This document shows, piece after piece, positions 5,037 to 9,531 of a stretch of 29,077 nucleotides of DNA (the first letter of the stretch is position 1; every line of letters begins with the position of its first letter). Source of the stretch: Myxococcota bacterium (GTDB lineage: Bacteria; Myxococcota_A; Polyangia; Nannocystales; Nannocystaceae); contig JBCCHT010000074.1 in assembly GCA_039028615.1 (NCBI GenBank), forward strand, positions 1 through 29,077, in the 5' to 3' direction. The notes beneath the pieces were generated by a model. It saw only the letters and a list, made by a program, of their open reading frames with translations, searched no databases and was not told where the DNA came from. Made by a program: the position numbers and the translations under genes.

Positions 5037-5375
5037 ATGGTCAAACGATCGGTCCAGGTCGAGATCGCCGGGCAGCGGCTTTCGATCCGCAGCGACGAGG
5101 GGCCGCAGTACGTCCAGCAGCTGGCCGACTACGTCGACGCCCAGCTGCGACAGCTGACCCAGGGGCGCCGCAGCACGCCGAGCATGCAGCGGGTCGCCCT
5201 GCTCGTCGCGATTCAGATGGCCGACGAGCTGTTCCGCGAGCGCGACCTGCATCGCCGGTTCCGCGCCCGGGTGGCCGACAAGCTCGCCACGCTGCGCGAA
5301 GCCCTGGACGAGCACGAAGCGCAGCTGCAGCCCACCGCGGCCGAGCCTCCCCCGGACACGGCCACCGAAGAGTGA
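5037..5375 (+). CDS. zapA: Cell division protein ZapA
   Basis: VQVEIAGQRLSIRSDE...LADYVD...VALLVAIQMADELF followed by a coiled coil; 112 aa. Confidence 0.88.
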   Translation: MVKRSVQVEIAGQRLSIRSDEGPQYVQQLADYVDAQLRQLTQGRRSTPSMQRVALLVAIQMADELFRERDLHRRFRARVADKLATLREALDEHEAQLQPTAAEPPPDTATEE

Positions 5376-6757: not shown

Positions 6758-8032
6758 ATGGACGACGTGGAAGCGCTCAAGCACCCCCGCTCCAAGGCCC
6801 TCGCCGCCCTCGTCGAACGAGGCTTCGTCGAGCAGGCCTCCGATGCCGCCGCCATCGACCAGGCCCTCGCCGAGGGCATGGTGACGTTCTATATCGGCTT
6901 CGATCCCACCGCCCCCTCGCTGCACGTGGGCAACCTGGTGTGCATCATGGCGATGCGGGTGCTCCAGCAGCATGGCCACCGCCCGGTGGTGTTGCTCGGC
7001 AGCGGCACCGCGCGCATCGGCGACCCCTCGGGGCGCAACGAGACCCGCAAGATCCTCGACGAGGCGACCATCGACTCGCAGGTCAAGTCGATCAGCGAGC
7101 ACTTCGGTCACTTCCTGCACATGGACACGGGCGCGCCCAACGACGCCGTGGTGGTCGACAACCACTCGTGGCTCGGCAAGCTCGGCTACATCGACTTCCT
7201 GCGGGACTTCGGCGTGCACTTCACGATCAACCGGATGATCGCGACGAAGACCTACCGCGAGCGCCTGGACAACGAGCAGCCGCTGTCCTTCATCGAGTTC
7301 AACTACCAGCTGTTCCAGGCCTACGACTTCATGCACCTGTACCGGGAGCACGGGGTCAAGCTGCAGCTGGGCGGTAGCGATCAGTGGGGCAACATGGTGG
7401 CGGGCGTCGAGCTCATCCGTCGCATCGGCGGCGGCGACAAGGGCCCTGCGCACTGCCTCACCTTCCCGCTGCTGACCACCGCCGACGGCCGAAAGATGGG
7501 CAAATCGGAGCGCGGGGCGGTGTGGCTGCACCCCGACCAGCTCGCCCCCTTCGACTACTTCCAGTACTGGGTCAAGTGTGACGACAGCGACGTCCGCAAG
7601 CTGCTGCTGACGTTCACGGACCTGCCCGTCGCAGAGATCGACGCGCTGTGTCGGGCCGAGGGCGCGCAGCTCCGCGAGGTGAAGCAACGCCTCGCCTACG
7701 AGACGACCAAGCTCGCGCACGGCGAAGAAGCGGCCGAGCAAGCCAAGGCCGCCGCCGCGCAGGCCTTTGGGGGTGGCGACGACTGGAGTGCCGTGCCGGC
7801 CGTCAGCATCGACGCCGCGCCGATCAAGCTGGTCGACCTGGTCACCCACGACGCGGTCAAGGCGTTCCCCTCCAAGCGTCAGGCTCGACAGCGCATCGAG
7901 TCGGGGGCCGTGAAGATCGACGGCGAGCCGCGGACCGACCCCAACGCGGAGCTGGGACCCGACGACTTCCCCCGCTCGGGGCTGCGGCTACAGGCTGGCC
8001 GACGTACGCGCTTCCGCGTCCTCGTCGGTTGA
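6758..8032 (+). CDS. tyrS: Tyrosine--tRNA ligase
   Basis: YIGFDPTAPSLHVGN (HIGH), QAYDF, GGSDQWGN, KMGKS (KMSKS), C-terminal S4-like domain. Confidence 0.97.
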   Translation: MDDVEALKHPRSKALAALVERGFVEQASDAAAIDQALAEGMVTFYIGFDPTAPSLHVGNLVCIMAMRVLQQHGHRPVVLLGSGTARIGDPSGRNETRKILDEATIDSQVKSISEHFGHFLHMDTGAPNDAVVVDNHSWLGKLGYIDFLRDFGVHFTINRMIATKTYRERLDNEQPLSFIEFNYQLFQAYDFMHLYREHGVKLQLGGSDQWGNMVAGVELIRRIGGGDKGPAHCLTFPLLTTADGRKMGKSERGAVWLHPDQLAPFDYFQYWVKCDDSDVRKLLLTFTDLPVAEIDALCRAEGAQLREVKQRLAYETTKLAHGEEAAEQAKAAAAQAFGGGDDWSAVPAVSIDAAPIKLVDLVTHDAVKAFPSKRQARQRIESGAVKIDGEPRTDPNAELGPDDFPRSGLRLQAGRRTRFRVLVG

Positions 8033-8091
8033 AAAAATGAGCCCACCCCCCAAGAAGCGGTCCCCCGACTGCTCGAGCGGGGGGCGGGCTC
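8032..8091 (-). terminator. Intrinsic terminator on the minus strand
   Basis: 13-bp stem GAGCCCGCCCCCC/GGGGGGUGGGCUC (one G-U pair on minus, a mismatch on plus) followed by AUUUUUU. The loop is unusually large (27 nt). Confidence 0.7.
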
Positions 8092-8281
8092 TCCCCTCAA
8101 CCCCCCGACCCAACGAACCGTCGAGTGCGGGTGCGTTTCGCCATTCCCCGCGAAACGCTGACGACACCGACCGCTTCATCGAGCCAGCACGGGCCAATTC
8201 CCCTTGCCCATGCTCTCGACGGAACTGTCTGTGCCGTGATCCGTAACATCTGAATCTCCCAGAGCATCATTTGTGCTCTGC
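8032..8281 (-). ncRNA. Candidate structured small RNA (~250 nt), family not recognised
   Basis: Promoter-like element upstream, 5' hairpin at 8260-8280, enclosing stem 8118-8128/8212-8222, two 9-bp hairpins with GGGGAAU loops, terminator at the 3' end, no convincing ORF. Confidence 0.55.
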
Positions 8282-8287
8282 GCAACG

Positions 8288-8316
8288 ATTAGAACACGGC
8301 CGTTTCAATTTTTCGA
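8288..8316 (-). promoter_or_regulatory. Putative sigma70-type promoter for the candidate sRNA
   Basis: Minus strand: TCGAAA (-35, 8316-8311), 17-nt spacer ending in TGn, TCTAAT (-10, 8293-8288). Predicted start near 8281. Confidence 0.45.
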
Positions 8317-8409: not shown

Positions 8410-9531
8410 TCAAGGTGCGGAGGCGGATCCCGTCGGCTGCGATGCCGCCGTCGATCCTTCGCCCGAAAACCGGCCTGAAAGCCTGTTTTTCTCGACGTTC
8501 GCCTCGAGCTCGTCGATCGCCGAGGCGAGCAGCTTCGTCGACGCCCCGGGCAGCCGAGCCTGCTCGCTCAAGCATCGTCGAAAGCGACGCGCGCCCGGCA
8601 AGCCGTGCACGAAACCCATGAAGTGACGGGTCACGAAGCTCAGGCGATGTCCCTGCTCGACCGAGCGCTCCACGTAGGGCAGCAGCGAGCGTAGGACGGC
8701 GAAGCGCTGGTTCGAATCCACGCGGTTGGTCGGTTCGTCCGCAGGCCAAGGCTCTCCGCGCTCATGGGCGTCGATGAGCGCGTCCGCGTTCGCGAACAAC
8801 ATCGGATCGTCGTAGGCCGCACGCCCGATCATGACGCCGTCGAGCCCCTGCTGCAGGTGGTCGGCGGCTTGGGCCAGCGTGGTGATGCCCCCGTTGATCT
8901 CCACGCGCAGCGACGGATGCTCGGCCTTGAGCCGATGCACCCAGGACCATCGCAGCGGAGGCACGGTGCGGTTTTGTGCCGGGCTCAGCCCCTGCAGCCA
9001 GGCCTTGCGCGCGTGCACGATGACCCGGTCGGCGCCCGCGTCCGCGACCTGGGCCACGAAGTCGGCGGCGTGCTCGTACTGGTCGAGATCGTCGACACCG
9101 AGGCGCTGCTTGACCGTGACCGGCAGCGGCGTCGCCTTGCGCATCGCCTCGACGCACTGGGCGACGCGGGCAGGGTCCTTCATGAGGATCACGCCGAAGC
9201 GCCCTTGTTGCACGCGCGGTGAAGGGCAGCCGCAGTTGAGGTCGATTTCGTCGTAGCCCATCGCGGTGGCGACCGCGGCCGCCTCTGCCAAGCGAGCCGG
9301 ATCGTCGCCGCCGAGCTGGAGGGACACGGGTCGTTCGATGGGGTCGAAGCCGAGCACGCGCGCCTGGTCGCGACCGAGCGCGGCGGACAGCGAAATCATC
9401 TCGGTGTACAGCAGCGTCCGCCGGGTGACCGCCCGCATGATCACGCGATAGTGGCGATCGGTGCGATCGACCATCGGCGCGACCGACAGCGGGTACGCGG
9501 GTCCGCGAGGCGACTTTGACGACAGAGACAT
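8410..9531 (-). CDS. dusA: tRNA dihydrouridine synthase DusA
   Basis: SVAPMVDRTDRHYR, LLYTEM, LQLGG, DLNCGCPSPRVQ, HARKAWLQGLSPAQNRTVPPL, NGGI, VMIGRAAY. Confidence 0.95.
   Translation of the reverse strand: MSLSSKSPRGPAYPLSVAPMVDRTDRHYRVIMRAVTRRTLLYTEMISLSAALGRDQARVLGFDPIERPVSLQLGGDDPARLAEAAAVATAMGYDEIDLNCGCPSPRVQQGRFGVILMKDPARVAQCVEAMRKATPLPVTVKQRLGVDDLDQYEHAADFVAQVADAGADRVIVHARKAWLQGLSPAQNRTVPPLRWSWVHRLKAEHPSLRVEINGGITTLAQAADHLQQGLDGVMIGRAAYDDPMLFANADALIDAHERGEPWPADEPTNRVDSNQRFAVLRSLLPYVERSVEQGHRLSFVTRHFMGFVHGLPGARRFRRCLSEQARLPGASTKLLASAIDELEANVEKNRLSGRFSGEGSTAASQPTGSASAP

Follow-up and report, generated by a model that had tools for sequence, protein, structure and literature searches.

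In Bacillus subtilis, the roughly 229-nt RNA RosA carries three G-rich regions and sponges the C-rich small RNAs (sRNAs) RoxS and FsrA, and RsaI of Staphylococcus aureus has been proposed as a similar G-rich sponge (PMC8216469; here and below, citations refer to excerpts of the source named). C-rich loops of LhrC (PMC4132741), sX13 (PMC3771888) and 6C (PMC6486639) bind G-rich ribosome-binding regions, and G-C loop pairing can proceed independently of a chaperone (PMC6486639, PMC3771888). The myxobacterial sRNA Pxr follows an NtrC-like gene (PMC5684412), contains a C-run that is seen in a probe (PMC5568312) and binds near Shine-Dalgarno (SD) sequences (10.1101/2025.09.11.675593); on its seed, the excerpt of PMC11928866 adds nothing. 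Few regulatory RNAs of myxobacteria have come to light apart from Pxr and some recent candidates in M. xanthus, and our literature search returned nothing on sRNAs of the bacterial family studied here or on a myxobacterial sponge RNA. Here, we analysed a window of 29,077 nt, which is contig C74 of a 12.3-Mb genome (97% complete; G000) of the Paraliomyxa lineage, together with five other genomes of the same genus (G001-G005). The element in question is intergenic, with tyrS (plus strand, ending at 8032) and dusA (minus strand, ending at 8410) convergent around it. We tentatively interpret it as a G-rich sponge in the manner of RosA and RsaI, with a C-rich sRNA candidate of the 6C/Pxr type as its target, on contig C6 of the same genome (hereafter C6), a reading that we regard as possible and short of probable.

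The element is a non-coding, strongly folding, single-copy stretch. Its folding z-score is -7.06 on the minus strand and -5.60 on the plus strand, and none of 200 shuffles equalled either value. The initial annotation, made from the sequence alone, had described a structured, terminated non-coding candidate on the minus strand between these two genes, and this description agrees with the fold and with the flanking domains (PF00579, PF01207). Two annotated 9-bp hairpins with GGGGAAU loops were recovered as well. The first, AGCAUGGGC/GCCCGUGCU (8186-8214, minus strand), has a loop with a mean unpaired probability of 0.93 and, according to the pairing probabilities, is the tip of a 77-nt irregular hairpin; the second is listed in Table 1, along with the 5' hairpin, the 13-bp terminator stem and the U6 tail, all of which were found in the sequence as annotated. 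A stem CCGUCGAGAGC/GCACUCGACGG that was supposed to enclose the two hairpins did not hold up: the inverted repeat exists, but 11 of its 11 pairs have a probability of 0.000, and forcing the stem costs 16 kcal/mol. The element contains four GGGGA motifs as compared to a genome mean of 0.29, and its relatives carry 4, 3 and 2. Four or more GGGGA occur in 13 of 2774 intergenic strands of G000, and at least three accessible ones in only 2, the element among them; in this ranking it is surpassed only by the antisense strand of C6.

The element is present at the tyrS/dusA site in four of the six genus genomes (G000, G002, G004 and G005, hereafter the carriers), where a spacer of 228-324 nt plus the terminator separates dusA from tyrS. 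No spacer separates dusA from tyrS in G003 and G017, nor in another five genomes of the family, while in G001 different genes lie at the tyrS end and the element is absent there. BLAST of the element against 61 genomes returned only G004 (E 1e-8), plus a weak match in G002. A model built from the four homologs (R1), whose matches to those four are by construction, found nothing further above 27 bits in 73 family genomes, with 67 candidates per genome scored and 150 per genome in a second scan. Pattern scans returned 75 loci in genome contigs, three of them strong, 74 in metagenomes (best 23 bits) and 2 in viral sequences, where no relative of tyrS was found; Paraliomyxa miuraensis (L142) carries the element, with 82 bits, which places the lineage in the myxobacterial family Nannocystaceae. 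Within the reach of these scans, the 73 family genomes, the species-level collection and the metagenomes yielded no additional homolog. A looser pattern was rejected as noise, since among the matches listed it hit 52 of 59 genomes.

Conservation is concentrated at the 3' end. The terminator alignment of the four homologs has 73% column identity, with pairwise shared words of 11-19 nt, whereas three control terminators from the same four genomes share words of only 5-6 nt, and four-fold sites of tyrS have diverged to 52-68% identity (random, 40-49%); the terminator hairpin is therefore under unusual constraint. Its outer stem is fully paired and has three pairs changed on both sides, although 18-23 of 500 shuffles reach such values and only four sequences are compared. 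The best-conserved sequence is the inner mini-hairpin of the terminator, which occurs once in G000; its 16-mer has 15 matches in 14 of the 73 genomes, of which 11 lie outside the element and none in a comparable terminator. Just upstream, GGGG(A) of the linker is kept in all four homologs and GGUCGGG in three. Over the 185 nt 5' of the terminator, G000 and G004 are significantly alike (0/500 shuffles) and G000 and G005 borderline so (7/500); the upstream 200 nt fold with z-scores of -7.5 in G000 and -5.6 in G004, and G004 has a comparable long hairpin with the loop AGGGGAGAGU. By alignment, what is conserved in the relatives is the terminator with its inner loop, a loop that the initial annotation had not emphasised, and the G-rich stretches just upstream, and not the twin GGGGAAU hairpins as such, to which that annotation had drawn attention. 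Between the terminator and the end of tyrS, G002 has a 13-14-nt unit repeated five times in tandem (L041:2773-2850), and the C-terminus of TyrS differs there.

The partner candidate came from a scan for intergenic UCCCC hairpins. C6 (G000:C6:248710-248970, minus strand; L348:310-570, L349-L353) is located directly behind a sigma54-activator-like gene, between it and a helicase-like gene, has a terminator-like end and is conserved in G004 and G002. With ten UCCCC, nine of them accessible, it ranks first among the 2774 intergenic strands of G000, the next having 4. The orthologous site has 10 UCCCC in G000, 7 in G004 and 3 in G002 (where 143 nt are left on the contig), a short version with UCCC repeats in G005, and none in G001 and G003. 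The 24 other family loci fetched (30 of 45 matches were fetched in all) have 0-3 UCCCC; those of G013, G014 and G093 each have a pair close to the stop. Judged by motif counts, C6 and the element share their distribution, with three clear cases and one degenerate one, and C6 is absent at the site in both non-carriers. The 5' hairpin of C6 is conserved in three genomes, its G.U pairs fall on the C-rich strand (2:0), and its likeness to 6C and Scr3202 is weak and below the cut-off (22-24 bits). Predicted seeds between the element and C6 are 6-11 bp long; after opening costs, the energies of three separate seed sites add up to between -24 and -28 kcal/mol for each of the genomes G000, G002 and G004. 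C6 is a candidate 6C/Pxr-like C-rich multi-loop RNA, notable even if the element should not be its partner. Three further intergenic regions of G000 have four accessible UCCCC each (C25:12924-13287, C51:81340-81894, C42:59174-59711) and are possible other partners or C-rich sRNAs.

We propose a RosA-like sponge because the element matches the anatomy of RosA. In common with RosA and RsaI/RsaOG it has a length of about 230-250 nt, an intrinsic terminator, several single-stranded GGGG regions, a narrow taxonomic range, a C-rich-loop RNA in the same genome and a small open reading frame (ORF) with a G-rich SD-like word (PMC8216469). For G000 and G004, the predictions give a terminated RNA of 150-250 nt with at least two G-rich regions accessible, whereas fewer are accessible in G002 and G005, and the C-rich-loop sRNA is so far represented by a candidate only, C6. 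The differences are that the element has no Rfam match and is likened to RosA by description, that its host is a myxobacterium, that its best-conserved G-region is part of the terminator loop, that about ten C-rich sites are present in the candidate partner, and that pairing is predicted. LhrC repeats its motif in a hairpin loop, a linker and the terminator loop, as the element does (PMC4132741), but the motif of the element on the favoured strand is the mirror image (GGGGA), and direct resemblance to LhrC, 6C, sX13 and RNAIII belongs to C6, below the cut-off. Pxr of Myxococcus xanthus is likewise an intergenic stem-loop RNA from a myxobacterium, and its terminator hairpin is required for function (PMC5684412), but its NtrC-like neighbour and C-run fit the context of C6, not the element.

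According to this proposal, a lineage-specific RNA of about 250 nt would be produced from the minus strand, either from its own AT-rich promoter or by cutting from the 3' end of dusA, and would end at the conserved terminator. Its exposed G-rich regions, three to five in number (those of two hairpin loops, the linker and the terminator inner loop), would pair with the UCCCC loops of C6, and sponging would keep C6 off the G-rich ribosome-binding regions of its target mRNAs. The proposal draws on the predicted structure, on conservation and complementarity, and on the distribution that the element and C6 share among six related genomes; from these we infer transcription and strands of both RNAs, their pairing and a regulatory effect. 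We consider it probable that the element is a real minus-strand RNA with its own function, and, if so, the case for C6 as its partner stands about even. Of the two modes that the initial annotation offered for a stand-alone sRNA, base pairing is the kind favoured here, and sequestration of CsrA is not. It is possible, and rather doubtful, that sRNA and sponge arose together in one genus, as a ten-site anti-SD C6 RNA and an unlinked G-rich neutraliser with multiple loop-loop contacts including the terminator loop. If true, a RosA-like circuit would have evolved independently outside Firmicutes, visible from sequence as two complementary motif outliers, and an sRNA of recent origin whose partner can be named would be a case for the origin of sRNA-sponge pairs. 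If the sponge reading fails, what is left is either a previously undescribed RNA of this genus or a long 3' untranslated region (UTR) of dusA, of modest interest.

Several observations weigh against the sponge reading. Over the 5' two thirds of the element, 4 of 6 homolog pairs show no significant likeness. The upstream 200 nt fold weakly in G002 (z -2.4) and no better than shuffles do in G005 (z -0.6); in both genomes, the majority of the upstream G-runs are predicted to be paired. G-runs alone are not rare, because a looser filter yields 70 non-coding-like clusters with at least four GGGGA in G000, pairs of GGGGA hairpins within 150 nt number 23 genome-wide, and a G4 or C4 run lies at the loop in 16 of 101 oriented terminators. 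The complementarity of C6 is by construction, C6 having been sought by the complementary motif, and a common tendency of intergenic G/C runs to expand might account for the element and C6 alike. Non-cognate pairs score equally well or better (e.g., G000 with G002, -32.0 kcal/mol), the cognate pair of G005 is weak (-10.0 kcal/mol), and no species-specific covariation was found between the element and C6. In addition, the terminal hairpin of C6 in G004 has no U tail, the six kin genomes are not independent, and the genus tree is unresolved, so that gain and loss cannot be ordered. Neither candidate RNA, the element or C6, has a demonstrated promoter. The annotated promoter-like TCGAAA-17-TCTAAT is present and has 9 of 12 consensus bases, but a promoter scanner rejects it, the -10 box being without A at position 2, and three relatives have no equal element (best 6-8/12). 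The only sigma54 promoter candidate was in G004, and there was none before C6.

The missing promoter conservation leads to the strongest alternative, which we consider doubtful while giving it real weight: the element may be a plain long 3' UTR and terminator of dusA that also forms a 3' barrier for tyrS, its hairpins stabilising the mRNA and its G-runs having no partner. The scan of the window showed no other terminator between dusA and that of the element, and the 5' part diverges fast. GAGCCC...GGGCTC closes many strong hairpins of G000 and is a common terminator closure (62 matches, both strands counted), and the G4/C4 loops mentioned above would be nothing unusual for a terminator. On the other hand, ordinary terminators are not sequence-conserved across these genomes, whereas that of the element is, loop included, and the genomes in which dusA abuts tyrS indicate that the spacer is dispensable for the two genes. 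Among G000 terminators in general, UUCG loops favour the U-tail strand (12 vs 2); a UCCCC bias of terminator loops was rejected (4 vs 3).

The initial annotation had suggested that loop GGA motifs titrate CsrA as in CsrB, RsmY and RsmZ, which we now regard as unlikely. The likeness to CsrB/CsrC/RsmY/RsmZ lies in a short repeated GGA-containing motif in hairpin loops and in the presence of csrA, which was indeed found in G000, paired with fliW behind a sigma54 activator (G000:C44:12896-13491; L045). csrA occurs in 36 of 61 relatives and in three of the four carriers, and each homolog has 6-9 GGA, several in loops. No flagellin was found in G000, so CsrA would have other work, and loss of the canonical leader site in the genus (see below) leaves room for a shifted specificity. 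However, a CsrA sponge is disfavoured because the motif is GGGGA and not ANGGA, FliW stands beside CsrA, and G004 lost csrA-fliW and kept the RNA. The element has 6 GGA against a genome mean of 3.7, a number that 17.6% of windows reach, and 1 ANGGA (1-2 per homolog), neither being enriched. The CsrA consensus asks for an upstream A, a six-base loop and usually not more than 4 pairs (PMC7652899), while the element has few sites on long stable stems of at least 9 bp. FliW is anti-correlated with the sRNA-driving BarA-UvrY system (PMC4682653). In G004 (88% complete), there is no match to csrA or fliW, the two flanking genes lie about 100 bp apart in continuous sequence (L266:1394-1495), and despite this deletion the RNA retains four GGGGA and a strong fold; G001 and G003 show the reverse, csrA without the RNA.

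Outside the genus, 17 of 20 csrA loci have at the start region a GCCANGGAG hairpin with canonical ANGGA, which the element lacks, as compared to 0 of 5 in the genus. This hairpin suggests a canonical CsrA specificity in the family, which also speaks against titration through GGGGA, and is likely an autoregulatory site. Csr/Rsm models of Rfam gave no match to E 10 in the window or to E 5 in three homolog loci, no ANGGA cluster like that of a canonical Csr sRNA was seen among the top 25 windows of G000, and the excerpt of a review of CsrA variation contains nothing on myxobacteria (PMC13443453). G000 thus has a FliW-CsrA module without its usual flagellin partner, and fliW of G001 contains an in-frame TAG. 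In four family genera, csrA was present in 11 of 11 sampled genomes and fliW in 0 of 34, and the CsrA tails differ (L047-L066); a search for a true Csr sRNA could turn to these genera without FliW.

Protein sponges typically repeat a short motif on stems that vary, and the element has this design. It might accordingly sequester another G-tract-reading protein, such as an RRM protein, or pair directly with C-rich mRNA sites, an improbable reading in our view. Each of the six genus genomes has 4-7 single-domain RRM_1 genes, and G000 has 218 GTCCCCCGA sites, but RRM genes are also present in both non-carriers, and neither a protein nor an mRNA partner was identified.

A functional RNA could also come from the plus strand, as a tyrS 3'-UTR-derived anti-SD sRNA with UCCCC loops like LhrC, 6C, sX13 or Pxr, and a sibling of C6. 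The plus strand folds far better than shuffles (z -5.6 in G000, -9.0 in G004), offers 3 accessible UCCCC and resembles LhrC in the placement of its motifs in a loop, the linker and the terminator loop (PMC4132741). The strand evidence makes this rather improbable. The initial annotation had argued for the minus strand from G-U pairs, and over four homologs there are 10 G.U vs 4 A.C positions on this strand, although the cells are non-independent; for comparison, 101 terminators whose orientation is known gave 17:5 in this test, and signal recognition particle (SRP) RNA gave 4:0. The outer stem and upstream hairpins favour the minus strand, while three of the four A.C positions belong to the inner terminator helix and speak for the plus strand, on which this helix has G.U in 3 of 4 homologs. 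The U tails of the homologs are on the minus strand, a plus-strand terminator was looked for and none was found, and an AT-rich dip marks the minus-strand 5' end. Taken together, the sequences favour the minus strand.

Very unlikely is a cis attenuator, in which upstream or inner G-runs would pair with the C-run in the 5' arm of the terminator, so that transcription from the dusA side could continue into tyrS in antisense. For each of the four homologs, 5-10 of the 13 bases in this arm find upstream partners in the nascent RNA, and folds without the terminator are only 7-19 kcal/mol worse, but the alternative pairings differ among homologs, as expected from G/C runs, and no T-box or riboswitch model matched the element, which lies downstream of and antisense to tyrS. 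A small protein gene is hardly credible: a 50-codon ORF (ATG at 8249, preceded by the SD-like GGGAGA) fills the element in G000 and, like a 61-codon ORF in G004, stops just before the terminator, but the two peptides are unlike, no counterpart occurs in G002 or G005, GC-rich DNA commonly contains frames of this kind, and a conserved small ORF was therefore rejected.

The element is undescribed in the literature searched, narrow-range and a member of none of the tested families. At the gathering level no Rfam family matched in the window, and to E 10 only weak shapes of microRNA precursors appeared; three homolog loci gave nothing to E 5. As annotated, the element is not 6S, SRP, RNase P, transfer-messenger (tmRNA) or transfer RNA: no such model matched, and tmRNA, 6S, SRP and RNase P RNA are each located on other contigs of G000. 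It does not match Pxr (RF01812) and is flanked by dusA and tyrS instead of an NtrC-like gene, and no Pxr above the cut-off was found in 31 family genomes. A dispersed repeat, for example of the repetitive extragenic palindromic or miniature inverted-repeat transposable element type, was ruled out by the single copy in G000. Pairing of the loops with a tRNA 3' end (tRNA-Leu, -28 kcal/mol) was also dismissed, 9-101 of 150 shuffles being as good. The 16S rRNA of G000 is represented only by a fragment at a contig end. Features of the locus are collected in Table 1.

Table 1. Predicted features of the element and its neighbouring genes (window coordinates).
Feature	Position	Strand	Remarks
tyrS, tyrosyl-tRNA synthetase	6758..8032	+	PF00579, PF22421, PF01479; 3' end at U-tract of the element
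U6 tail	8032..8037	-	
Terminator hairpin, 13-bp outer stem	8039..8091	-	Conserved; outer stem 100% paired in four homologs
Inner mini-hairpin GCRRUC-GGGG-GACYGC in terminator loop	8057..8072	-	G-rich region 3, inner loop UCGGGGGAC
Small hairpin and G-rich linker GGGUCGGGGGG...GGGGA	8092..8123	-	Immediately 5' of terminator
9-bp hairpin, GCGUUUCGC/GCGAAACGC	8133..8158	-	Loop GGGGAAUG, GGGGAAU = G-rich region 2; mean unpaired probability 0.91
Long irregular hairpin, 77 nt	8161..8237	-	Apical loop 8195-8205 with GGGGAAU = G-rich region 1
5' hairpin	8260..8280	-	7 bp; as sequence, in G000 only
Promoter-like TCGAAA-17-TCTAAT	8288..8316	-	In AT-rich dip; unproven
dusA-type tRNA-dihydrouridine synthase	8410..9528	-	PF01207; same orientation as the element; start codon approximate

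Other observations concern the window and the rest of the genome. zapA and 6S RNA are usually linked; in the window, zapA (5037-5375) has no adjoining 6S RNA, and the 6S match of G000 follows respiratory-complex-I-like genes (G000:C59:45788-45953). G000 also has clusters of 5-9 tRNA genes with divergent copies (C3:258280-258723, C23:6428-7170 and C27:171191-172216), possibly derived from mobile elements. Finally, a dispersed repeat of about 100 nt is present in at least four copies in non-coding G-rich DNA, on C18 (at about 62280, 158800 and 165890) and C53 (at about 38210) of G000.

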